This document shows, piece after piece, positions 10,269 through 60,891 of a stretch of 64,000 bases of DNA. The notes under the pieces were generated by a model, which worked only from the letters and a program-made list of their open reading frames with translations, did not search any database and was not told the DNA's origin. The stretch's first letter is position 1; each line of letters begins with the position of its first letter. The stretch is from NCBI RefSeq assembly GCF_054482595.1, contig NZ_CM137008.1. One strand, given 5' to 3'. Made by a program: the position numbers and the translations under genes.

Positions 10269-11010
<742 letters not shown>

Positions 11011-11032
11011 GAGATGAAGCGATGTTTTGGCC

Positions 11033-11326
11033 TTACGCGACCTTTTTTGCACGCTCTTCACGGCGTGCCAAATATTCAGCCACTGTTTCAATCCGTCCCA
11101 ATTCTTCCTGGGTACGCATGTTGTTTTCAACTTCCCAAAGATCAACTGCCGCCTGGAGGTTTAGCCAAAAATCGACTGTGGTATCAAAAACTTTCGCCAG
11201 ACGGAATGCCATTTCAGTGGTGAGTTTACGATTATTATTGATCAGTGTACTGACGTTATTACGATGAACATGCAGCAACTCTGCTAACTCATTGATTTTC
11301 AAAGCGAGCGGTTCCAGATTATTCAT
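11033..11326 (-). CDS. ybaQ: XRE/HigA-family HTH DNA-binding protein YbaQ
   Basis: 97-aa ORF with HTH (LHVHRNNVSTLINNNRKLTTEMAFRLAKVF); no toxin-like ORF adjacent. Confidence 0.88.
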   Translation of the reverse strand: MNNLEPLALKINELAELLHVHRNNVSTLINNNRKLTTEMAFRLAKVFDTTVDFWLNLQAAVDLWEVENNMRTQEELGRIETVAEYLARREERAKKVA

Positions 11327-11512
11327 AGAGAAGAATATCTCCGGGTGTCGTCGGTTTTCTTGTTGCCTGTTTCATAGTTTTTAACTGTTGCTTCCCTGTG
11401 AATAGCGATACAAGAACATACTGAATCATACAAACACATTAAACAAGTCCCCAACTCCATTTGCGCCATTCCTCCCCGCGCGCTAGCATGATATTTCACA
11501 AAGGGAGGTCGT

Positions 11513-12307
11513 ATGGATCTGTTGTACCGGGTAAAAACGCTTTGGGCCGCGCTGCGCGGTAATCATTACTCCTGGCCTGCCATCGATATCACCCTCCCCG
11601 GCAATCGCCATTTTCATCTGATTGGCAGTATTCATATGGGTAGCCACGATATGGCTCCCCTGCCCGCCCGTTTGCTCAAAAAGCTCAAAAACGCCGATGC
11701 GCTGATCGTCGAGGCGGATGTTTCCACCAGCGATACGCCTTTTGCTAATTTGCCTGCCTGCGAGGCGCTGGAAGAGCGTATTAGCGAGGAGCAATTACAA
11801 AATCTGCAGCACATTAGCCAGGTGATGGGCATTTCTCCGTCACTCTTTTCTACCCAACCGCTGTGGCAAATCGCGATGGTTCTTCAGGCGACGCAGGCAC
11901 AAAAACTGGGGCTGCGGGCAGAATACGGTATCGATTACCAGTTATTGCAGGCGGCGAAGCAACAACATAAACCCGTGATTGAACTGGAAGGGGCTGAAAA
12001 CCAGATTGCCATGTTGCTCCAGCTCCCTGACAAAGGACTGGCGCTGCTGGACGATACGCTGACCCACTGGCATACCAACGCACGGTTGCTGCAACAAATG
12101 ATGAGCTGGTGGCTGAATGCGCCGCCGCAAAATAATGAAATAACGCTGCCCAATACGTTCAGTCAGTCGCTGTACGATGTGCTGATGCATCAGCGAAATC
12201 TCGCCTGGCGGGATAAATTACGCGCCATGCCGCCGGGGCGATATGTGGTCGCGGTCGGTGCACTACACCTGTATGGAGAAGGGAATTTGCCGCAAATGTT
12301 GCGCTAA
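11513..12307 (+). CDS. ybaP: TraB/GumN-family protein YbaP
   Basis: 264-aa ORF with preceding SD (aaagggaggtcgt ATG); conserved position between ybaQ and ybaK. Confidence 0.88.
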   Translation: MDLLYRVKTLWAALRGNHYSWPAIDITLPGNRHFHLIGSIHMGSHDMAPLPARLLKKLKNADALIVEADVSTSDTPFANLPACEALEERISEEQLQNLQHISQVMGISPSLFSTQPLWQIAMVLQATQAQKLGLRAEYGIDYQLLQAAKQQHKPVIELEGAENQIAMLLQLPDKGLALLDDTLTHWHTNARLLQQMMSWWLNAPPQNNEITLPNTFSQSLYDVLMHQRNLAWRDKLRAMPPGRYVVAVGALHLYGEGNLPQMLR

Positions 12308-12389
12308 AAAAATGGCCAATATCGCTATTGGCCCGTCAAAGAGGAATTTCATTTTTTTATTATTATGCCGTCACTTTAAGCGACGGTGT
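12305..12389 (-). ncRNA. chiX: ChiX (MicM/SroB) Hfq-dependent small RNA
   Basis: Minus strand reads ACACCGTCGCTTAAAGTGACGGCATAATAATAAAAAAATGAAATTCCTCTTTGACGGGCCAATAGCGATATTGGCCATTTTTTT, matching recalled ChiX with its terminator hairpin and U-tract. Confidence 0.85.
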
Positions 12390-18054: not shown

Positions 18055-18150
18055 ATGAAAAATATGTAGGCATGATAAGACGCGCCAGCGTCGCATCGGG
18101 CATCGAGAGCCAAATGCCAGATGCGGCGTGAACGCCTTATCTGGCCTACG
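18055..18150. repeat. REP pair (single BIME) downstream of ybaL
   Basis: gtaggcatgataagacgcgccagcgtcgcatcgggca and gccagatgcggcgtgaacgccttatctggcctac in inverted orientation. Confidence 0.85.
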
Positions 18151-25569: not shown

Positions 25570-27501
25570 TCAAATGGGGCGGATACTTTCTTCATCCAGC
25601 TCCGCATCGAAGAACCGACGCAGGGTCTGAATATTATTATCCGCAATAATGGACTCGCGCGCCTGCGCAAGTTTTTCTTCGTATATCGCCTGACGCCACT
25701 CCAGCGGCGTACGCACCGCGGGATTATCATCTTCAACGATAGTCAGTTCAACCGTTGAACCTTTTAACGTGCTCAACGCTTCAGCCAGTTTTTGCTGTGC
25801 ACCGCGGTTGTTCAAATGCCGCTGAGAGGAGCGCAAATGCAGACATACTGCGTTGTCGCTCTCCTCTTTCCAGGCATTTAAGGCCACCTGTTCGACCAGT
25901 TTTGGTAGCGAAAGTTGACTCACCTGTGCCGCCCACGCGTCGCGCTCAATGGCTTCTGCCGCCAGCTTCGCCGCCAGTTCCGGCGTTTTTTCATGTTCCA
26001 GCGCTTTTTTCAGCGCCTTCGGCGTGGCGACCACTTCTTTTTGCTGCATCACTGGAGTGGTAGCCTTCCAGCGATACGCTTCTTTTTTGGCTGGCGCTTT
26101 TTCCAGCGCCGATGGCACCGGACGCGCCTGAACGCGATCGGTGACCGAAGCCAGTCTTTCCAGCGCAGCGTTATTCACCGGCCGCGCGCGGGTAGCGGCT
26201 GCCGGTTCACTCTTTTTTGCTTTGGTTGCTCCCTGCACGCGCTGCAACTGCTGGCGCGCCGCCAGCACCTGGCTGGTGGTTTCCGGGAGCGGTACAGTCG
26301 GTGCCTGCTGCGGCGCTGATTGCGGTTGCGGCGGCACCTGGGTTGGCGTCATTACTGCCGTTGGCGCGACGGGCGCAAAGGACTGGCGTGGCACTTCTGG
26401 CTCAGGCAGAGGCATACGTGGATGGAACGCCAGCGCGCGCAGCAGCGTCATCTCAACGCCCATGCGGCGGTCCGGCGCATACGGTAATTCTTTGCGACCA
26501 ATCAACAGCGTCTGATAGTAAAGCTGAATATCCGTCGGCGGTATGGTGCGCGCCAGTTCACGCATCCGCAGCTCAATGGCGGCCATGTCGTTGCCAAGTG
26601 CAGCAGGCGAAAGTTGTACCATCGCAATACGATGCAACAGGCCGAGCATTTCCACCAGCAACGCTTCCCACTCGATACCACGGGCAGCGGCTTCATTAAT
26701 CAGCGCCATTACGCGCTCGCCGTTGGCCTCGACCATCGCTTCAACCAGCGACAGCGCCTGATCGTCGTCAAGCGTACCCAGCATCGCACTGACTGCCTGG
26801 GTTGAAACCTGGCCGTCACCGCTGGCAATCGCCTGGTCGGTCAGACTTAAGGCATCTCGCAGGCTGCCTTCAGCGGCGCGCGCCAGCAATTGCAACGCCC
26901 GCGGCTCGTGAGCGATATGTTCTTCGTTGAGGATGTGCTCAAGTTGATGGCGAATTTGCTCGACATCCAGCGCCTTGAGATGAAATTGCAAACAGCGCGA
27001 CAAAATCGTCACCGGCAATTTCTGTGGATCGGTCGTCGCCAGCAGAAACTTAACGTGCTCCGGCGGCTCTTCAAGGGTTTTTAACAGTGCGTTAAAGCTG
27101 TGGCGCGACAGCATATGCACTTCGTCGATCAGATAAACTTTGAAACGACCACGCGCCGGAGCGTACTGGACGTTATCCAGCAGGTCGCGGGTATCTTCAA
27201 CTTTGGTGCGCGAGGCGGCGTCGATTTCAATCAGATCGACAAAGCGCCCCTGCTCGATTTCACGACAGTTATCGCACACGCCGCACGGCGTCGCGGTAAT
27301 GCCGGTTTCGCAGTTTAGCCCCTTCGCCAGCAGTCGGGCGATAGAGGTTTTTCCGACGCCACGGGTACCGGAAAAAAGATAAGCATGATGAATACGCCCT
27401 AACGACAAGCCGTTCGCCAGTGCGGTCAGCACATGTTCCTGGCCGACGACGTCAGCAAAGGTTTGTGGGCGCCATTTTCGGGCTAAGACCTGATAACTCA
27501 T
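25570..27501 (-). CDS. dnaX: DNA polymerase III subunits tau/gamma
   Basis: 643-aa ORF; AAA+ Walker A GTRGVGKTS, Walker B DEVH, zinc module CGVCDNC. Confidence 0.97.
   Translation of the reverse strand: MSYQVLARKWRPQTFADVVGQEHVLTALANGLSLGRIHHAYLFSGTRGVGKTSIARLLAKGLNCETGITATPCGVCDNCREIEQGRFVDLIEIDAASRTKVEDTRDLLDNVQYAPARGRFKVYLIDEVHMLSRHSFNALLKTLEEPPEHVKFLLATTDPQKLPVTILSRCLQFHLKALDVEQIRHQLEHILNEEHIAHEPRALQLLARAAEGSLRDALSLTDQAIASGDGQVSTQAVSAMLGTLDDDQALSLVEAMVEANGERVMALINEAAARGIEWEALLVEMLGLLHRIAMVQLSPAALGNDMAAIELRMRELARTIPPTDIQLYYQTLLIGRKELPYAPDRRMGVEMTLLRALAFHPRMPLPEPEVPRQSFAPVAPTAVMTPTQVPPQPQSAPQQAPTVPLPETTSQVLAARQQLQRVQGATKAKKSEPAAATRARPVNNAALERLASVTDRVQARPVPSALEKAPAKKEAYRWKATTPVMQQKEVVATPKALKKALEHEKTPELAAKLAAEAIERDAWAAQVSQLSLPKLVEQVALNAWKEESDNAVCLHLRSSQRHLNNRGAQQKLAEALSTLKGSTVELTIVEDDNPAVRTPLEWRQAIYEEKLAQARESIIADNNIQTLRRFFDAELDEESIRPI
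26205..26218 (-). other. dnaX: dnaX programmed -1 frameshift site that yields gamma
   Basis: Minus strand reads GCA AAA AAG AGU GAA: heptamer A_AAA_AAG in frame (..ATKAKKSEP..), with UGA in the -1 frame directly after. Confidence 0.9.
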
Positions 27502-28780: not shown

Positions 28781-29308
28781 GTGAAAACCGCCCTGCTGCT
28801 GGAAAAACTGGAAGGACAGCTCGCTACGCTGCGTCAGCGTTGTGCCCCGGTAGCGCAATTTGCCACGCTAAGTGCCCGTTTTGACAGACACCTTTTTCAA
28901 ACCCGTGCGACAACACTGCAGGCTTGTCTCGATGAGGCGGGCGATAATCTGGCTGCGCTTCGTCATGCAGTTGAGCAGCAACAGCTGCCGCAAGTGGCCT
29001 GGCTGGCGGAACATCTGGCGGCACAACTGGAAGCCATCGCGCGTGAAGCCTCCGCCTGGTCATTGCGCGAGTGGGACAGTGCGCCACCGAAAATTGCCCG
29101 CTGGCAGCGTAAACGTATTCAGCATCAGGATTTTGAGCGGCGGCTACGTGAGATGGTTGCCGAACGCAGAGCCCGCCTGGCGCGGGTGACCGATCTCGTG
29201 GAACAGCAAACGCTGCATCGTGAAGTGGAAGCCTATGAAGCGCGCCTGGCACGCTGCCGCCATGCGCTGGAAAAAATCGAAAACAGGCTAGCGCGCTTAA
29301 CCCGCTAG
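28781..29308 (+). CDS. priC: Primosomal replication protein N'' (PriC)
   Basis: 175-aa basic, helical ORF in conserved position upstream of ybaM. Confidence 0.9.
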
Positions 29309-29321
29309 CAATGGAGAGAGT

Positions 29322-29483
29322 ATGTCACTGGAAAATGCCCCTGACGATGTCAAACTGGCTGTCGATTTGATTGTGCTGCTGGAAGAAAATCAGATCCCAG
29401 CCCGCACCGTGCTGCGCGCGCTGGATATTGTAAAACGCGATTATGAAAAGAAATTAACGCGCGATGATGAGGCGGAAAAGTGA
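29322..29483 (+). CDS. ybaM: Small protein YbaM (DUF2496), 53 aa
   Basis: Hand-translated: ATG at 29322 preceded by ggagag; encodes [53 protein letters not shown], stop at 29481-29483. Below the ORF-track size cut-off. Confidence 0.8.
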
Positions 29484-29509
29484 GAAATAAATGGGGCCGC
29501 TAAATGTCC

Positions 29510-29640
29510 CCTAAGATTGTGGGCAAACGCAAAACTGCCTGATGCGCTACGCTTATCAGGCCTACACCGCTCCTGCAATACATTGAATTCTTGCGGTTTC
29601 GTAGGCCGGATAAGGCGGTCACGCCGCATCCGGCATGAAC
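29510..29640. repeat. REP pair (BIME) between ybaM and mscK
   Basis: gcctgatgcgctacgcttatcaggcctac ... gtaggccggataaggcggtcacgccgcatccggca, two inverted REP units. Confidence 0.85.
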
Positions 29641-29694
29641 AACGCGCACTTTGTCAGTAATCTCGGGGCAACTAAATGTCGCCCCCTTTGGTTA

Positions 29695-32600
29695 TTACCC
29701 TACCGCTGGCGTCGGGTCATCGCCTTTGTAGTCGCGTTTGACTTCCGTCACCTCATCGCCCTTCTCGTTGTGCAGATGCACTTCAAGCTGGTTAAAGGCA
29801 ATGTTGATGTCGTTTTCACGGCACAGCTGATCGATAGTACGGTTCAGCTCATCGACAGTACGACTACGGTCACGCAGTTCACGCACATACAGACGCAGCT
29901 CATGATCCAACGTGCTGGCACCAAACGCCGTAAAGAAGACTTCCGGCATTGGTTCGTGCATCACCCTTGGGTGCTCAGTCGCCGCCTTCAGTAACACTTT
30001 ACGCACTTTTTCCAGATCGGAGCCATAGGCCACGCCGAGACGGATCACCAGACGCGTAGTAGTGTCAGTCAACGACCAGTTGATCAGACGCTCGGTAACA
30101 AACGCTTTGTTCGGGATGATCACTTCTTTGCGATCGAAATCGGTAATCGTTGTCGCACGAATACGGATCTTACTTACCGTCCCCGAGAAGCTACCAATGG
30201 TTACCGTATCGCCAATACGCACCGGACGTTCGAACAGAATGATCAAACCGGAGACGAAGTTACCGAAAATTTCTTGTAAACCAAAACCAAGACCTACGGA
30301 TAATGCTGCGGCCAGCCACTGGAGTTTATCCCAAGAGACGCCCAGCGATCCGAACACCGTCATCGCACCAACGGCAATAATGATGTAGTTAAGGATGGTA
30401 GTAATGGCATACGACGCGCCCTGACGCATATTCAGTCGCGAGAGCACCAGCACTTCCAGTAAACCAGGCAGGTTGCGAATCAACGCCCAGGCCACCATTG
30501 AGGCGATAATCGCAAACAACAGACTGCCCATGGTGACGTTTTTCACCACCGCAGCGCCAGCTTCAGTGCCGTTGTAATGCCAGAGCGTGATGCTGTCGAG
30601 ATAGCTGAACACGGTGATCAAATCGGACCAAATTGCCCAGAACATGACACCGAACAGCGCAAACATCAGCAACATGGTAATACGCAGCGTCTGCTGGTTA
30701 ACTTGCTCCAGTGCAATGGTGGGTTCTTCCGGCGGTTCGGCACCTTCTGCGCCCTCTTTCACCAGATTCTGCCGACGCGCCAGCGCACGACGCCAGGCGA
30801 TACGCCGCGCCGCTACGCTTAAGCCGCGCAATACCGTCTGGTAGAGCAAGTTCCAGATGATCACCAGATAAACGGTTTCAATCCAACGCCCGGAGAGGCG
30901 CAGCGTGGTGTAGAAATAACCCGTGGCAGTCAGCACCATCAATGCAATCGGGATAATCGACAGCACGGTAATGGTGACCAGTCGCATGGTGTGCGACTCT
31001 TTATCACGCCAGCTTTCGCGGCACATTGGCCATACCAGGAAGGCAATCAGCAGCAGGTTGAAGAAAATCATCGCCTGCCCCAGCACATCATCCATCAGAT
31101 GCAGCGGGGAAAGTTCTGCCACCACAGACCAGAAATGGATAGGCAGCAACGCGAGACTGATGCGGACAATTTGCCGACGCCAGTGGCTGGTCTGCTGCTC
31201 CGGCATGCCGAAGTGACGCACGGCAACGCCATTTTTCTCCAGTACCTTCCAGCACAGGCCAAACACCAGCCAGAAAATCGCCAGTTTTTTACTGAACGAC
31301 CATAGCAGTTCGCTGATGTTGAGCTGCATGGTCAACAGAATCAGGCCAACCGCGAGAATAATCAGGCACACCGGCAGCGCGCGGATCAGGTCGATAAGGA
31401 TCGCTTTTGGTGTGTTGAGCTGGCTATCGTTACGCAGGGAACCCACAGCGGAAGCCAGTTTCTGTTGATACGCTTTCAGCCAGCCCAGACGCCAGTGGAT
31501 CAGCCCGGCAATCAACAGCAGCGGCAAACCAGCGAGGAAAGCGATAAAAACGGCAGGCCAGGCTTTTTCCCAGTTCACCGTGATTTTCATCGACTTAAAT
31601 TCATCTTTCAGGCTTTGCGGGAACGCTTTGATCCAGTCCCAGTCCATTGGACGGTTACTGTTCACCCAAAAGATTTGCTGAGTCAGGATGGATTTCAGGT
31701 TTTTCGATACGCTCATTAACTGCTGCTGGTTGATTTGCAGGTTAATGGCCATCATCAGCTGGTTACCCAACTGTTTGTTGAGTTGATCCAGCAATTCGCG
31801 ACGCATATCAACCACTTGCAATAACGCATCGTGAACTTCGCTGTTGACTTCGTTGGTGTGACCTTCTTCCAGTTTGTTGACGAACGCATCGCTCTGGAAG
31901 AGTGCATCACGCTGCTGGTTAACTTCAAACTGTTCGAGACGCAAATCCGCGATGCGGTTGGTCATGTTTTCCAGTTCATCCGCCGAGGGCAGCGTTTGTT
32001 GTTGCTGGTAAAGGATACGAGACAACAGCAGGCTGCCCTTCAGGACGGCAATCTGCTCTTTAATATTGCGTTCCGATTGCAGCGCCCGCTCCAGCCAGTT
32101 TTTGACTTTAATGTTTTGCTGCATCAACTGATTACCGTTTTCAGTCGCGGTAATCAGACGCTGACTTAACTGCTGGTTAATTTCCAGTTCCTGTTTCACC
32201 AGCGGATTAGCCTGAATACGCGCGGCTTCATCCGGGGAGACGGCTTCCTGCGCCGTTTTTTCAGTTAAAGTCAGGCGCTTGCTGTTTACCGCTTCTTGCA
32301 ACAGCTGCAACTGGTGCTCCAGACGGGCGCTGTTCGCCGTCACGTAATCACGTTGCTTTTGCAAGGTATCCTGCAAGACGGTGTTCCCTTCCAGGCTTTT
32401 ACGCTGCTGGTCAATCTCCGCATTCAGCAACGCCTGCTGAGCCTGCATTAACACTTTCTGGCTGGGACGTAAGGCAGTCTCGCCGACATCAGTCCCATCC
32501 AGACGACTGCGAATTTGTTGCAGCTGCTGCGAAGCGTTATACATCGCATTTTGCACGCGTTCGGGCTGCGTCTGTAACGAAACCAGCTGGCTGTTATAAG

Positions 32601-33057
32601 ACGCCAGATCGTTTTGTGCGTTTTGCAAATCGTCCAGCGCCTGGGCAACGCGAGTTTCCAGCTGGCGCAACGAAAGCGTACTCAGAATTTTGCGCGTTTC
32701 TTCGTCGTTATCGACATCGCTAAGTGCTGTTAACGCCGCGGTCGCCTGGCGCATTTTTTCCGGCGCTTCAGCGACTTTTTGCCGTAGCTGAACTGTCTCT
32801 TCTTTTATGCGATCGATTTTATCGAGGGTGGCTAATGTATCTGTCAGATCCTGCTGCACCAGTTTGTCCTGAGCAGAAAGATCTTTTTGTTTATTTAGTG
32901 AGTCAAGTTGCGCCTGCAGGTCCGCTTTTGTCGGCAGATCACCATTCGATGACGCCCGCGCAAACGCCGTGTTCTGGCATAACAAGACAAAAACAAAAGC
33001 AATAAATGCTGAAAAAACAAAATGCCGTGATCGTTTGTAATACTGGAACATAGTCAT
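29695..33057 (-). CDS. mscK: Mechanosensitive channel MscK (KefA)
   Basis: 1120-aa ORF: signal peptide, long periplasmic coiled-coil region, multiple TM helices and C-terminal MscS-like domain. Confidence 0.95.
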   Translation of the reverse strand: MTMFQYYKRSRHFVFSAFIAFVFVLLCQNTAFARASSNGDLPTKADLQAQLDSLNKQKDLSAQDKLVQQDLTDTLATLDKIDRIKEETVQLRQKVAEAPEKMRQATAALTALSDVDNDEETRKILSTLSLRQLETRVAQALDDLQNAQNDLASYNSQLVSLQTQPERVQNAMYNASQQLQQIRSRLDGTDVGETALRPSQKVLMQAQQALLNAEIDQQRKSLEGNTVLQDTLQKQRDYVTANSARLEHQLQLLQEAVNSKRLTLTEKTAQEAVSPDEAARIQANPLVKQELEINQQLSQRLITATENGNQLMQQNIKVKNWLERALQSERNIKEQIAVLKGSLLLSRILYQQQQTLPSADELENMTNRIADLRLEQFEVNQQRDALFQSDAFVNKLEEGHTNEVNSEVHDALLQVVDMRRELLDQLNKQLGNQLMMAINLQINQQQLMSVSKNLKSILTQQIFWVNSNRPMDWDWIKAFPQSLKDEFKSMKITVNWEKAWPAVFIAFLAGLPLLLIAGLIHWRLGWLKAYQQKLASAVGSLRNDSQLNTPKAILIDLIRALPVCLIILAVGLILLTMQLNISELLWSFSKKLAIFWLVFGLCWKVLEKNGVAVRHFGMPEQQTSHWRRQIVRISLALLPIHFWSVVAELSPLHLMDDVLGQAMIFFNLLLIAFLVWPMCRESWRDKESHTMRLVTITVLSIIPIALMVLTATGYFYTTLRLSGRWIETVYLVIIWNLLYQTVLRGLSVAARRIAWRRALARRQNLVKEGAEGAEPPEEPTIALEQVNQQTLRITMLLMFALFGVMFWAIWSDLITVFSYLDSITLWHYNGTEAGAAVVKNVTMGSLLFAIIASMVAWALIRNLPGLLEVLVLSRLNMRQGASYAITTILNYIIIAVGAMTVFGSLGVSWDKLQWLAAALSVGLGFGLQEIFGNFVSGLIILFERPVRIGDTVTIGSFSGTVSKIRIRATTITDFDRKEVIIPNKAFVTERLINWSLTDTTTRLVIRLGVAYGSDLEKVRKVLLKAATEHPRVMHEPMPEVFFTAFGASTLDHELRLYVRELRDRSRTVDELNRTIDQLCRENDINIAFNQLEVHLHNEKGDEVTEVKRDYKGDDPTPAVG

Positions 33058-33184
33058 GATGAATGAAGGTTTCTGAACCTGAAGAACGACCTGAAAAAGT
33101 CAAACCGCAAGAATATCACGACGCAGTGAACCAGAATAGCAACGACGAAAATGTCCAGGAAAAATCCTGGAGTCAGATTCAGGG

Positions 33185-33832
33185 TTATTCGTTAGTGGCA
33201 GGATTACGAAGCGTGGGGCACAGGAGATACATCTCCAGTAAGATGGCGACGTAATCGCGGGCTTCTTTTTTAAGATCAAAAGATTGCGGGGCAAAGAGCC
33301 AGTTTTCCATCAGGCCGGAAATATAGCCGCGCATAATAATTGCTGCCCGACGCGTCATTAAATCCGCAGGCAACATTTTCGCTTCAATACAATGTTTTAA
33401 CGTTTGTTCTATACGGTCATAACTTTCCAGACAGAGATTACGTTGTGCCTGTTGCACAACAGCCATTTCTCCGACAAATTCGCATTTGTGGAATATAATC
33501 TCCATCAATAATCGACGTCGTTCTTCTGTCACCGTGGATTCAAGAACATGAATTAATATCTCTCTTAATACTGAGAGTGGATCGCCAGGGAATTTTGCCT
33601 GATACTCAAGCTCTAGTTCACCAATATTGGATTCTGACAGTTCCCAGATCTCACTGAACAAATCCGACTTGTCTTTAAAATGCCAGTAGATTGCACCGCG
33701 CGTAACGCCAGCTGCTTTTGCAATCTCGCCCAGCGAGGTGGATGATACCCCCTGCTGTGAGAAAAGACGTAGAGCCACATCGAGGATGTGTTGGCGCGTT
33801 TCTTGCGCTTCTTGTTTGGTTTTTCGTGCCAT
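33185..33832 (-). CDS. acrR: TetR-family repressor AcrR
   Basis: 215-aa ORF; N-terminal TetR HTH ([23 protein letters not shown]); divergent from acrAB. Confidence 0.96.
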
Positions 33833-33860
33833 ATGTTCGTGAATTTACAGGCGTTAGATT

Positions 33861-33884
33861 TACATACATTTGTGAATGTATGTA
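33861..33884. promoter_or_regulatory. AcrR operator palindrome in the acrR-acrA divergent promoter region
   Basis: Perfect 24-bp inverted repeat tacatacatttgtgaatgtatgta between the acrR and acrA starts. Confidence 0.85.
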
Positions 33885-33973
33885 CCATAGCACGACGATA
33901 ATATAAACGCAGCAATGGGTTTATTAACTTTTGACCATTGACCAATTTGAAATCGGACACTCGAGGTTTACAT

Positions 33974-35167
33974 ATGAACAAAAACAGAGGGTTTACGCCT
34001 CTGGCGGTCGTTCTGATGCTCTCAGGCAGCTTAGCCCTAACAGGATGTGACGACAAACAGGCCCAACAAGGTGGCCAGCAGATGCCCGCCGTTGGCGTAG
34101 TAACAGTCAAAACTGAACCTCTGCAGATCACAACCGAGCTTCCGGGTCGCACCAGTGCCTACCGGATCGCAGAAGTTCGTCCTCAAGTTAGCGGGATTAT
34201 CCTGAAGCGTAATTTCAAAGAAGGTAGCGACATCGAAGCAGGTGTCTCTCTCTATCAGATTGATCCTGCGACCTATCAGGCGACATACGACAGTGCGAAA
34301 GGTGATCTGGCGAAAGCCCAGGCTGCAGCCAATATCGCGCAATTGACGGTGAATCGTTATCAGAAACTGCTCGGTACTCAGTACATCAGTAAGCAAGAGT
34401 ACGATCAGGCTCTGGCTGATGCGCAACAGGCGAATGCTGCGGTAACTGCGGCGAAAGCTGCCGTTGAAACTGCGCGGATCAATCTGGCTTACACCAAAGT
34501 CACCTCTCCGATTAGCGGTCGCATTGGTAAGTCGAACGTGACGGAAGGCGCATTGGTACAGAACGGTCAGGCGACTGCGCTGGCAACCGTGCAGCAACTT
34601 GATCCGATCTACGTTGATGTGACCCAGTCCAGCAACGACTTCCTGCGCCTGAAACAGGAACTGGCGAATGGCACGCTGAAACAAGAGAACGGCAAAGCCA
34701 AAGTGTCGCTGATCACCAGTGACGGCATTAAGTTCCCGCAGGACGGTACGCTGGAATTCTCTGACGTTACCGTTGATCAGACCACTGGGTCTATCACCCT
34801 ACGCGCTATCTTCCCGAACCCGGATCACACTCTGCTGCCGGGTATGTTCGTGCGCGCACGTCTGGAAGAAGGGCTTAATCCAAACGCTATTTTAGTCCCG
34901 CAACAGGGCGTAACCCGTACGCCGCGTGGTGATGCCACCGTACTGGTAGTTGGCGCGGATGACAAAGTGGAAACCCGTCCGATCGTTGCAAGCCAGGCTA
35001 TTGGCGATAAGTGGCTGGTGACAGAAGGTCTGAAAGCAGGCGATCGCGTAGTAATAAGTGGGCTGCAGAAAGTGCGTCCTGGTGTCCAGGTAAAAGCACA
35101 AGAAGTTACCGCTGATAATAACCAGCAAGCCGCAAGCGGTGCTCAGCCTGAACAGTCCAAGTCTTAA
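33974..35167 (+). CDS. acrA: Multidrug efflux periplasmic adaptor AcrA (membrane fusion protein)
   Basis: Start trimmed to MNKNRGFTPLAVVLMLSGSLALTGC (lipobox LTGC); 397 aa. Confidence 0.95.
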   Translation: MNKNRGFTPLAVVLMLSGSLALTGCDDKQAQQGGQQMPAVGVVTVKTEPLQITTELPGRTSAYRIAEVRPQVSGIILKRNFKEGSDIEAGVSLYQIDPATYQATYDSAKGDLAKAQAAANIAQLTVNRYQKLLGTQYISKQEYDQALADAQQANAAVTAAKAAVETARINLAYTKVTSPISGRIGKSNVTEGALVQNGQATALATVQQLDPIYVDVTQSSNDFLRLKQELANGTLKQENGKAKVSLITSDGIKFPQDGTLEFSDVTVDQTTGSITLRAIFPNPDHTLLPGMFVRARLEEGLNPNAILVPQQGVTRTPRGDATVLVVGADDKVETRPIVASQAIGDKWLVTEGLKAGDRVVISGLQKVRPGVQVKAQEVTADNNQQAASGAQPEQSKS

Positions 35168-35186
35168 CTTAAACAGGAGCCGTTAA

Positions 35187-38339
<3,153 letters not shown>

Positions 38340-38356
38340 TACAACGTGTAATCACT

Positions 38357-38381
38357 AAGGCCGCGCAAGCGGCCTTTTTTA
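38357..38381 (+). terminator. Rho-independent terminator of acrAB
   Basis: aaggccgcgcaagcggcc followed by tttttt, 18 nt after the acrB stop. Confidence 0.85.
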
Positions 38382-38884
38382 TGCATAACCTACGAACATT
38401 AAGGAGTAATTGAACCACCAACTCAGGATCTCATACGAAAACCAGTATTAACCACGTATAAAATTCATAAAAAATACTGATTGTTAGTTAATTTATATTA
38501 AGTAGCGCTAATAGATTTAATAATCCATAATCATTTAGAGGCTATTCTTAATTATTTGCGGTAATTCTTTATTCATTCCTCGGTTATTACGTCATATTCA
38601 GAGCAATCCTGGTATTAGTGTCACCAATTTCATCTGGCGATAATCCTGAAATGTTATGAACAGTTCGAGCAAACTGCTTTTACCTGCTGCGGGTTAGTGC
38701 TAGTATGAAAAAGTGAGTCCTGTCCCGATTCCTTCCTAATTGTAATTTTTCGTAATAATGCGATGAAAACCTGCAAAGAGTGGCTTATAGTTAAGCTAAC
38801 AAACGAGAGGGCAAGTCCAGGTCAGTAAGTTTTTTCCATCCCGAAAGGTGTCCGTTAGTTCAACCGCTAAGAAGGGGACGCGTT

Positions 38885-39259
38885 ATGGATGAATACTCAC
38901 CCAAAAGACATGATATCGCACAGCTTAAGTTTCTCTGTGAAACCCTGTATCATGACTGTCTTGCAAACCTTGAAGAAAGCAATCATGGCTGGGTTAACGA
39001 CCCAACCTCGGCGATCAACCTCCAGTTGAATGAACTGATTGAGCATATTGCGACCTTCGCACTTAATTACAAAATTAAGTATAATGAAGACAATAAGCTC
39101 ATTGAGCAGATCGACGAATATCTGGATGACACCTTTATGTTGTTCAGCAGTTATGGTATTAATATGCAGGATCTTCAGAAATGGCGGAAGTCAGGTAATC
39201 GACTATTCCGTTGTTTTGTCAATGCGACGAAAGAGAATCCTGCGAGTTTATCTTGTTAG
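38885..39259 (+). CDS. tomB: Hha toxicity modulator TomB (YbaJ)
   Basis: 124-aa ORF immediately upstream of hha. Confidence 0.9.
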
Positions 39260-39284
39260 AATTATTACAACCATGGGTAGAAGT

Positions 39285-39503
39285 ATGTCCGAAAAACCTT
39301 TAACGAAAACCGATTATTTAATGCGTTTACGTCGTTGCCAGACAATTGACACGCTGGAGCGTGTTATCGAGAAAAATAAATACGAATTATCAGATAATGA
39401 ACTGGCGGTATTTTACTCAGCCGCAGATCACCGCCTCGCCGAATTGACCATGAATAAACTATACGACAAGATCCCTTCCTCAGTATGGAAATTTATTCGC
39501 TAA
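39285..39503 (+). CDS. hha: Haemolysin expression modulator Hha (H-NS co-regulator)
   Basis: 72-aa product [72 protein letters not shown], found inside the longer track ORF 39039..39503. Confidence 0.93.
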
Positions 39504-39673
39504 TAAATAATTCGCTTTCGGAGCTATAACCGGCTGTTTATTAAGAATTTTATACTTTTCACCATGAAGACATACCCTATGTGATCTTTATCACACAGAT
39601 GTAATGGGAACGTTCTCTTCACTGACTTTTCGTCTTACTGTGTTGCCGCATTTTCAGCAACCGGAGGTCAGTA

Positions 39674-43030: not shown

Positions 43031-43144
43031 GGGTGGGGGCCCTGCCAGCTACATCCCGGCACACGCGTCATCTGCCTTGGCTGCTTCCTTCCGGACCTGA
43101 CCTGGTAAACAGAGTAGCGTTGCGGGAGAACCAACAGAGCCCCC
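43031..43144 (-). ncRNA. ffs: 4.5S RNA (signal recognition particle RNA)
   Basis: Minus strand reads GGGGGCUCUGUUGGUUCUCCCGCAACGCUACUCUGUUUACCAGGUCAGGUCCGGAAGGAAGCAGCCAAGGCAGAUGACGCGUGUGCCGGGAUGUAGCUGGCAGGGCCCCCACCC; ends +/-1 nt. Confidence 0.95.
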
Positions 43145-58349: not shown

Positions 58350-60704
58350 CTATTTTGCAGTCACAACCTGCATGCCAGACGGTTCATTTTGCAGCGCCAG
58401 AGTCAGAACTTCCTCAATGCGCTTCACAGGATGAATGTCCAGATCGGCAATTACGTTGTCAGGAATCTCTTCCAGATCGCGTTTATTTTCGAACGGAATT
58501 AACACTGTTTTAATCCCGCCGCGATGCGCTGCCAGTAGTTTTTCTTTCAAACCACCGATCGGCAGTACCTGACCACGCAGAGTGATCTCACCGGTCATTG
58601 CCACATCGGCACGAACCGGGTTACCGGTCAGGCAAGAAACCAGCGCGGTGCACATAGCAATACCAGCACTCGGACCATCTTTCGGCGTCGCACCTTCCGG
58701 TACGTGGACGTGGATGTCACGTTTTTCGTAAAAATCAGGGTTGATCCCCAGTTTTTCCGCACGCGCACGAACCACCGTTAACGCCGCCTGAATAGACTCC
58801 TGCATCACTTCGCCGAGCGAACCGGTATAGGTCAGTTTGCCTTTACCCGGAACACATGCGGTTTCAATGGTCAGCAAGTCACCGCCCACTTCCGTCCACG
58901 CCAGACCGGTTACCTGACCGACACGGTTTTCGTTATCAGCGCGACCATAGTCGAAACGCTGAACACCGAGGTAGTCATGCAGGTTATCGCCGTTAATTTC
59001 GATATGTTTTAATGACTTATCGAGCAGTAACTGCTTAACCGCTTTGCGGCACAGTTTGGAGATTTCACGCTCCAGACCACGCACGCCCGCCTCACGGGTG
59101 TAGTAACGAATAATGCCGATAATGGCGCTATCGTCGACGGTCAGCTCACCTTTTTTCAGTGCATTACGTTCAATCTGCTTCGGCAGCAGGTGACGTTTGG
59201 CGATGTTCAGTTTTTCATCTTCGGTATAACCGGAGAGGCGAATCACTTCCATACGATCCAGCAGCGGTGCCGGAATGTTCATGGAGTTCGACGTCGCGAC
59301 AAACATCACGTCGCTGAGATCGTAATCCACTTCCAGGTAGTGGTCGCTGAACGCTACGTTCTGCTCTGGATCCAGCACTTCAAGCAGTGCAGAGGCCGGA
59401 TCGCCTCGCATGTCAGAAGACATTTTGTCGATCTCATCGAGCAGGAACAGCGGGTTTTTCACGCCCACTTTCGCCATTTTCTGGATCAGTTTACCCGGCA
59501 TAGAACCGATGTAAGTACGGCGGTGACCACGGATTTCCGCTTCATCACGCACGCCGCCCAGCGCCATACGGACATATTTACGCCCGGTGGCTTTGGCAAT
59601 GGACTGACCAAGAGAGGTTTTACCTACCCCCGGCGGCCCTACCAGGCAGAGGATCGGTCCCTTGATTTTGTTGACACGGCTTTGAACCGCAAGGTACTCA
59701 AGGATGCGATCTTTCACGCGCTCCAGACCATAATGGTCGGTATCAAGGATTTCCTGCGCCTGACGCAGGTCTTTTTTGACCTTGCTACGCGCATTCCACG
59801 GCACCTGTACCATCCAGTCGATATAACCACGCACTACGGTCGCTTCTGCCGACATCGGAGACATCATTTTCAGCTTCTGCAACTCTGCTTCCGCTTTCTC
59901 TTTTGCCTCTTTCGGCATCTTCGCCGCGTCGATTTTGCGCTTCAGGGCTTCGTTTTCGTCCGGCGCGTCGTCCATTTCACCGAGTTCTTTCTGAATAGCT
60001 TTCATTTGCTCGTTCAGATAGTACTCACGCTGGGATTTCTCCATCTGCTTTTTAACGCGGTTGCGAATGCGTTTCTCAACCTGCAGCAGATCGATTTCCG
60101 ATTCCATCATTGCCATCAGATATTCCAGACGTTCGTTAACGTCGGACATCTCCAGAACGGACTGTTTATCAGCCAGTTTCAGCGGCATATGTGCAGCAAT
60201 GGTATCCGCCAGACGCGCCGGATCGTCGATGCTATTCAGCGACGTCAGCACTTCTGGTGGGATTTTTTTGTTCAGCTTGATGTAGCCTTCGAACTGGCTG
60301 ATTGCAGTACGCACCAGCACTTCCTGTTCTCGCTCATCAATAGTCGGCGACTCCAGATACTCCGCCTTCGCAGAAAAGTGTTCGCCATTGTCAGAGAGCG
60401 CAGAAATACGCGCGCGCTGTAACCCCTCGACCAGCACTTTGACGGTGCCGTCAGGCAGTTTCAGCATCTGCAATATAGAGGCCACGGTCCCGACGGTGAA
60501 AAGATCGTTTACACCCGGCTCATCCGTTGAAGCTTCTTTCTGCGCGACCAGCATAATTTTTTTATCATGGTCCATCGCCGCTTCCAGACAACGGATAGAT
60601 TTTTCCCGCCCGACAAATAAGGGGATGACCATGTGCGGATAAACCACCACATCGCGCAGCGGCAATACGGGGATTTCAATGCGTTCAGAACGCTCAGGAT
60701 TCAT
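58350..60704 (-). CDS. lon: ATP-dependent Lon protease
   Basis: Start trimmed to [23 protein letters not shown] (784 aa); Walker [10 protein letters not shown]; catalytic Ser in PKDGPSAG. Confidence 0.97.
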
Positions 60705-60787
60705 AGAGCTCTCTCTTAGTTTAATTTCCGCCAGGTAATCAGATGACACGACTGTGCTTCACGCCATCTATTAACATGTACGTCAGT

Positions 60788-60816
60788 ATATGGGGATGTT
60801 TCCCCCACATTCAACG
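60788..60816 (-). promoter_or_regulatory. Sigma-32 heat-shock promoter of lon
   Basis: Minus strand GCGTTGAATGTGGGGGAAACATCCCCATATACTGACG: TTGAA (-35) and CCCCATAT (-10). Confidence 0.8.
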
Positions 60817-60864
60817 CCGAGAATAGAGGAAAAATTAAAGGGGAGATAAAATCCCCCCTTTTTG
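60808..60864 (+). ncRNA. Candidate small RNA in the clpX-lon spacer (possibly SraA), ending at a plus-strand terminator
   Basis: Plus-strand hairpin aaaggggagataaaatcccccc followed by tttttgg at 60836-60864; position matches my recollection of sraA in the clpX-lon intergenic region, antisense to the lon promoter. Confidence 0.35.
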
Positions 60865-60891
60865 GTTAACTAATTGTATGGGAATGGTTAA

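Follow-up and report, generated by a model that had tools for sequence, protein, structure and literature searches.

The acrR/acrAB efflux locus of Escherichia coli with its control region in wild-type form: an AcrR operator lying across a bidirectional promoter

Background

For intrinsic multidrug efflux, E. coli relies chiefly on the AcrAB-TolC pump. Operators of the TetR/QacR type are palindromes that overlap the promoter of a divergent efflux gene and are bound by a TetR-family repressor encoded next to them. Marboxes of class I, in the sense of Martin et al. 1999, are said to lie upstream of the -35 element in an orientation opposite to that of transcription. Bidirectional promoters of the Warman et al. 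2021 type reportedly have divergent transcription starts ~18 bp apart (10-23 bp) and one pseudo-symmetric -10 region.

A 24-bp AcrR-binding site of the acrAB promoter has been published (PMC9769551) and is described as two 10-bp inverted repeats with a 4-bp spacer, bound by a dimer of dimers (PMC10597343). The operator of E. coli K-12 acrAB is attributed to Su, Rutherford & Yu 2007, as cited in these two papers. Electrophoretic mobility shift assays and in vitro transcription with AcrR are on record for a sequence identical to the one described here (PMC9769551, PMC10597343, PMC12825309). AcrR represses both the acrA and the acrR RNAs, and SoxS activates acrA, so lowering acrR transcription by polymerase competition (PMC12825309). 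According to PMC11642870, which cites Martin et al. 1999, the acrAB marbox coincides with nucleotides 1-20 of acrR, and full up-regulation of acrAB requires retention of the marbox nucleotides in acrR (PMC11642870). In the acrAB leader of Salmonella Typhimurium, the CsrA sites are a primary AAGGA and a secondary TCGGA (PMC5727465). Lesions of acrR or of the spacer next to it are a recognised route to raised resistance, and both IS5 insertions and point mutations in acrR have been published.

The present analysis concerns a contig (NZ_CM137008.1) of RefSeq assembly GCF_054482595.1, of which a stretch of 64,000 nucleotides, here called the window, was analysed as a whole. With a probability of roughly 0.96, the window carries the wild-type control region of the E. 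coli acrR/acrAB multidrug-efflux locus, with its operator and a bidirectional promoter. The essentials of this control region are already known, having been published for the identical sequence. Protein binding and regulatory outcome rest on that published work, and the analysis given here supplies sequence identity, anatomy and conservation. The cross-species footprint adds that the operator tolerates variation at its four central bases, and it shows a fourth island of conservation, 33907-33922, that is only partly explained.

Identity of the locus and comparison with wild-type E. coli

The spacer between acrR and acrA is 141 bp long (33833-33973), and the two genes are divergent. The coding sequences of the locus are:

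33185-33832, minus strand: acrR coding sequence, 215 aa, TetR-family repressor; open reading frame matching the NCBIfam equivalog NF007949 (AcrR) at 419 bits, cut-off 271
33974-35167, plus strand: acrA coding sequence, 397 aa, ATG at 33974; NCBIfam NF011604 at 885 bits, cut-off 765
35190-38339, plus strand: acrB coding sequence, 1049 aa; NCBIfam NF011706 at 2422 bits, cut-off 2150

An initial annotation had named this an acrR/acrAB locus. The name is well founded: the equivalog matches of AcrR, AcrA and AcrB exceed their cut-offs, and the DNA of the locus is 100% identical to that of many E. coli genomes annotated acrR/acrAB. On the far side of acrR lies mscK (29695-33057, minus strand), with 48 nucleotide differences from K-12 and two residue changes in MscK (Q497E, A722S). 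The mscK substitutions cluster at ~30826-30955, more densely than those of neighbouring genes, and may mark a small recombination patch.

The window was compared ungapped with positions 480000-490500 of K-12 MG1655. Over its 141 bp the spacer shows 0 differences. The acrR gene is full length and carries 3 nucleotide differences (33248, 33347 and 33518), while acrA carries 2 and acrB 25; all of these are synonymous and leave AcrR, AcrA and AcrB with the K-12 protein sequence and no internal stop. No indel relative to MG1655 occurs from 29093 to ~39558, and the alignment contains no IS element or frameshift in acrR or the spacer. At 39559, in the hha-maa intergenic region and shortly after the end of hha (39285-39503), a T-run (TACTTTT-CACC) is shorter than its K-12 counterpart by a 1-bp deletion; the Hha and TomB proteins are the same as in K-12.

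Such an alignment to a wild-type reference had been proposed with the initial annotation as a way to find changes that might raise efflux, and it was a sensible test. Since it yielded no spacer substitution, AcrR amino-acid change, IS insertion or frameshift, there is no sign of up-regulation acting in cis or through AcrR. As far as can be read from the sequence, nothing cis-acting or acrR-borne in the window would predict raised efflux; marR, soxR and rob lie outside the window. The negative result means that the species-wide wild type is present throughout, in the operator, the marbox, the promoter and the leader as well as in AcrR, AcrA and AcrB.

Of 5426 complete E. coli genomes, 5379 match the 1-kb region at 99% identity or more, many of them at 100%. 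A 100-bp core extending from the marbox to the acrR -35 (33813-33912) reaches at least 99% identity in 5419 of 5423 complete E. coli genomes; in a sample of evenly spaced rows, 38 of 40 stand at 100%. A contiguous match to acrR plus spacer is lacking in ~40 of 5423 complete E. coli genomes, one of which has an IS481-family transposase abutting the spacer and another of which matches 37% of the query.

Loss of lon stabilises MarA and SoxS. In the window lon lies at 58350-60704 (minus strand) and encodes a protein identical to that of K-12. The clpX-lon intergenic region, 187 bp with the lon promoter, has 0 mismatches to K-12 and no insertion; together with the gene it takes up 58350-60891.

The AcrR operator and the bidirectional promoter

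The most conspicuous element of the spacer is an inverted repeat:

33861-33884, no strand assigned: AcrR operator TACATACATTTGTGAATGTATGTA, with arms at 33861-33870 and 33875-33884 and a TGTG centre at 33871-33874

The arms found by the repeat finder are 10 nt each, 100% complementary and 4 nt apart. The initial annotation had placed this repeat correctly, at 33861-33884 between the divergent acrR and acrA, and had called it a perfect 24-bp palindrome. The repeat is indeed present, but its real structure is 10+4+10, with a centre that is not palindromic, as TGTG has no self-complementarity. The further proposal that the repeat is the AcrR operator is borne out by a letter-for-letter match to the published 24-bp AcrR site (PMC9769551, PMC10597343). 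With the four central bases left free, the pattern occurs 1 time in the 64-kb window, against 0.01 expected from dinucleotide-preserving shuffles. An intact cognate AcrR (215 aa, identical to K-12) is encoded beside it.

Promoter elements and cappable-seq start sites were taken from Table S2 of PMC12825309 and placed on the window by exact match. The 54-bp fragment of that table corresponds to 33859-33912, as an exact and single match, and gives the following features:

33859-33864, plus strand: acrA -35 element TTTACA, seen in the promoter scan; the hexamer mutated in the 'acrA down' construct (PMC12825309 Table S2)
33883-33888, plus strand: acrA -10 element TACCAT, from the consensus scan and PMC12825309 Table S2
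33889..33884, minus strand: acrR -10 element TATGGT, preceded by TGC at 33892..33890 (PMC12825309 Table S2)
33883-33892, no strand assigned: shared -10 region, in which TACCAT and TATGGT overlap at 33883-33889
33894, plus strand: acrA transcription start G, singly marked 'g' in PMC12825309 Table S2, 6 nt past TACCAT
~33877 (+/-1-2 nt), minus strand: acrR transcription start, from marked bases in PMC12825309 Table S2 whose formatting was lost; it gives a 45-nt leader
33912..33907, minus strand: weak predicted acrR -35 element CTGCGT, changed to TTGACA in the 'acrR up' construct (PMC12825309)

The acrA promoter was recovered independently by the consensus scan. The starts of acrA (33894, plus strand) and acrR (~33877, minus strand) are 17 bp apart and have a -10 region in common, and this arrangement of overlapping -10 elements fits the criterion for a bidirectional promoter of the Warman et al. 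2021 type. Counted from the two starts, the operator extends from -33 to -10 for acrA and from +17 to -7 for acrR. It thereby overlaps the core promoter, from the acrA -35 (33859-33864) to the -10 (33883-33888), together with the acrR start, and this position explains the published repression of both RNAs by AcrR.

The arrangement suggests the following mechanism. A single bidirectional sigma-70 promoter with its shared -10 at 33883-33889 directs transcription of acrAB to the right, starting at G 33894, and of acrR to the left, starting at ~33877. The operator lies over the acrA promoter from its -35 to its -10 and also over the point where acrR transcription begins. AcrR bound there blocks RNA polymerase both ways, so that acrAB is repressed and acrR autoregulated, and the binding of a ligand to AcrR would lead to its release.

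The spacer also contains a direct repeat, 33830-33847 and 33863-33880, the copies of which are 78% identical. The left copy, CATATGTTCGTGAATTTA, adjoins the acrR ATG. It looks like the central and right-hand portions of the operator, and TTTACA recurs at 33844-33849. The left copy was considered as a second, degenerate AcrR half-site and rejected, as conservation within the spacer is lowest there (0.57-0.60). The direct repeat is probably due to chance or a relic.

The activator site

A single marbox is found at the locus, on the far side of the operator from acrA:

33813-33832, minus strand: marbox (MarA/SoxS/Rob site) ATGGCACGAAAAACCAAACA, acrR codons 1-7, nt 1-20 of the gene

Sites were judged by the 20-bp degenerate consensus AYnGCACnnWnnRYYAAAYn, to which the site at 33813-33832 (minus strand) has 0 mismatches. 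In the form AYNGCACNNWNNRYYAAAY(N), the consensus has one zero-mismatch match in the 64-kb window (33814-33832, minus strand), against 0.03 expected. Counted from the start of acrA transcription (33894), the centre of the marbox is at about -71.5, which puts the site upstream of the acrA -35 and within the transcribed part of acrR. The consensus runs on the strand opposite acrA, and this is the class I geometry.

Because the marbox lies within the first acrR codons, complete deletions of acrR, or changes close to its start codon, also remove or alter the activator site (PMC11642870). The point for annotators is that the marbox is to be sought in the first codons of acrR, not between the operator and acrA.

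Conservation across Enterobacterales

Loci for comparison were picked by a back-translated AcrR helix-turn-helix motif (10 residues), with one genome per species, and not by the spacer; 34 other Enterobacterales loci with divergent acrR and acrA were retained. In 26 of the 34 species the operator keeps a constant distance of 29 nt to the acrR ATG. It has 0-3 mismatches in most species, nearly all of them within the four central bases, where the variants TGTG, TATG, CGCG, CACG, CGAG, GATG, CATG and CGTG occur. Column conservation over the 34 species is 0.99 in the left arm, 0.71 in the centre and 0.92 in the right arm. The acrA -35 scores 0.96, the -10 0.91 and the marbox 0.95, against 0.57-0.70 in the intervening stretches.

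The marbox has 0-1 mismatch in 33 of the 34 species, even with an AcrR that is only ~50% identical. In cases where the amino acid is the same, acrR codons 2-7 (33814-33831) keep the same codon 172 times out of 195, against 529 out of 1331 for codons 8-60 (34 species). The GCA codon and the Arg codon CGA are nearly fixed across species. The frozen synonymous sites in codons 2-7 fit a marbox superimposed on the coding sequence, although constraints of translation initiation may contribute.

Islands of conservation were defined in 24 species, with the loci of Morganellaceae, Budvicia and Rosenbergiella left out. The spacer has four of them: the -35/operator/-10 block; 33907-33922; 33932-33947, with a conservation of 0.87; and a stretch from TCGGA to the Shine-Dalgarno sequence (33954-33969), with a conservation of 0.956.

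The conserved block and the acrA leader

The features of the acrA leader are:

33894-33973, plus strand: acrA leader, 80 nt, from the start G 33894
33907-33922, no strand assigned: conserved block ACGCAGCAATGGGTTT, 16 bp, +14 to +29 of the acrA leader and -30 to -45 of acrR
33953-33957, plus strand: TCGGA motif, read from the sequence; matches the secondary CsrA site of Salmonella (PMC5727465)
33963-33966, plus strand: acrA Shine-Dalgarno sequence GAGG, 7 nt before the ATG; conserved

Averaged over the 24 species, which come from several Enterobacterales families, the block ACGCAGCAATGGGTTT has an identity of 0.969, the level of the operator/-10 block; over the full 34 species the figure is 0.83. 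The weak predicted acrR -35 covers no more than the first 6 bp of the block, and the model of a bidirectional promoter with an operator accounts for the block only partly. The block may be extended acrR promoter context, may bind some other factor or may have a role in the leader. That it forms a separate, undescribed cis-element, whether a site through which a factor affects the transcription of acrR or one that works at the RNA level in the acrA leader, is a tentative suggestion and a rather unlikely one. In the literature, a search by sequence matched ACGCAGCAATGGGTTT only as a primer, in two listings, and a search for natural small RNAs acting on the acrA mRNA found synthetic ones only.

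A small hairpin spanning the block (33903-33924) shows no compensatory changes or covariation, its outer pairs break in many species, and it was rejected as a supported structure. A PhoP-box-like GGTTTA-N5-TTTTGA (33918-33934) was also rejected, since its second half is not conserved across species.

Downstream of the block, the 80-nt acrA leader has the TCGGA motif and the ribosome-binding site, at which CsrA acts in Salmonella. From this likeness we infer that CsrA may bind the E. coli acrA leader at TCGGA. The sequence AAGGA is absent from the leader (33894-33973), in which the ribosome-binding region reads CGAGGT. The leader (33894-33990) does not fold unusually: its minimum free energy of -12.1 kcal/mol corresponds to a non-significant z-score of -0.58. 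In an Rfam scan that covered the entire window, neither the spacer nor its surroundings matched an RNA family.

Other features of the window

The same Rfam scan reported several elements elsewhere in the window, each at the place equivalent to that in K-12. These are sroB/ChiX sRNA (12306-12389, minus strand), a lone REP/naRNA4 match (18069-18146), the dnaX frameshift element (26173-26237, minus strand), 4.5S SRP RNA (43040-43136, minus strand) and, in the clpX-lon gap, sraA (60776-60871, plus strand).

The gap between copA and ybaQ contains a tandem array (10269-11011) with a 101-bp unit, 7.4 copies and a 97% match. Each unit consists of a REP pair and matches the Rfam family naRNA4 (RF02564) at 79-89 bits. 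MG1655 has ~2.4 copies of the unit at the same place (508581-508818), and the window is ~505 bp longer there. The adjacent ybaQ (11033-11429, minus strand), which encodes a HigA-family antitoxin or regulator, has a 1-bp insertion (T) near 11320 relative to K-12 that splits the gene into a 36-aa N-terminal open reading frame and one of 97 aa. Genome XH990, which is 100% identical, annotates ybaQ as a frameshifted pseudogene. The allele is uncommon: over 11000-11520, only 42 of 5422 E. coli genomes reach an identity of 99% or more.

Alternative readings

A perfect 10-bp inverted repeat with a 4-nt loop could in principle fold, and the repeat might be taken for a hairpin in RNA, serving as a terminator or leader structure, or for a palindrome arisen by chance, and not for a protein operator. 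However, both arms are present in neither transcript, as the acrA mRNA begins downstream of the repeat, at 33894, and the acrR mRNA inside it, at ~33877. The arms are also invariant in the 34 species without compensatory changes, which is the pattern of a protein site and not of a paired stem, and with 0.01 occurrences expected per window a chance palindrome is no better placed; neither explanation is credible to any appreciable degree. The initial annotation had expected sites of the MarA/SoxS/Rob type at about 33885-33937, between the operator and acrA. Activator sites are a general expectation in a divergent spacer, and this stretch includes the strongly conserved block at 33907-33922. However, the best marbox-like site lying wholly within it has 5 mismatches, which is background, since ~2.4% of window positions score at least as well. 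The stretch holds the shared -10, the acrA start G, the beginning of the acrA leader and the acrR -35. It is located downstream of the acrA start, where an activator of the MarA type could not recruit polymerase to this promoter. The genuine marbox is the one at 33813-33832, across the operator, and the expected layout is very unlikely to be right.

A third reading is that a regulatory lesion, such as a frameshift or IS insertion in acrR or a substitution in the operator or spacer, derepresses AcrAB in this genome. Lesions of this kind do occur, as the ~40 of 5423 genomes without a contiguous match and the published IS5 insertions and acrR point mutations attest. The window, however, offers none: the spacer is that of MG1655 to the letter, acrR has only its 3 synonymous differences at full length and with no internal stop, the alignment is free of indels over 29093-39558, and lon and its promoter are identical to those of K-12. 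A lesion of the locus can hardly be entertained, and the wild-type control region, with its operator and bidirectional promoter, is the reading adopted here.

Comparison with described systems

The closest described system is the AcrR operator of E. coli K-12 acrAB, to which the window corresponds in the 24-bp sequence, the 10+4+10 architecture, the position between acrR and acrA and the AcrR protein. Operator and spacer show no difference from K-12, while the host genome differs elsewhere, with ~1-1.5% substitutions over the window. The same agreement holds for the bidirectional PacrA/acrR promoter (PMC12825309), of which the -35, the shared -10 and the starts are all the same in the window, with no difference detected. 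The acrAB marbox of PMC11642870 is likewise represented by the same 20 nt, in acrR codons 1-7 and upstream of the acrA -35, again with no difference in the window.

The window resembles the acrAB leader of Salmonella Typhimurium (PMC5727465) in the length of the spacer, 141 bp, in having TCGGA and in the conservation of the ribosome-binding region. It differs in that AAGGA, the primary CsrA site of Salmonella, is missing from its acrA leader, in which the ribosome-binding region has the sequence CGAGGT.

The AcrR site resembles operators of the TetR/QacR type in being palindromic, in overlapping the promoter of a divergent efflux gene and in having the gene of a TetR-family repressor adjacent to it. 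The 24-bp AcrR site is said to take two dimers (PMC10597343), like that of QacR, whereas the TetR operator is 15 bp long and takes a single dimer.
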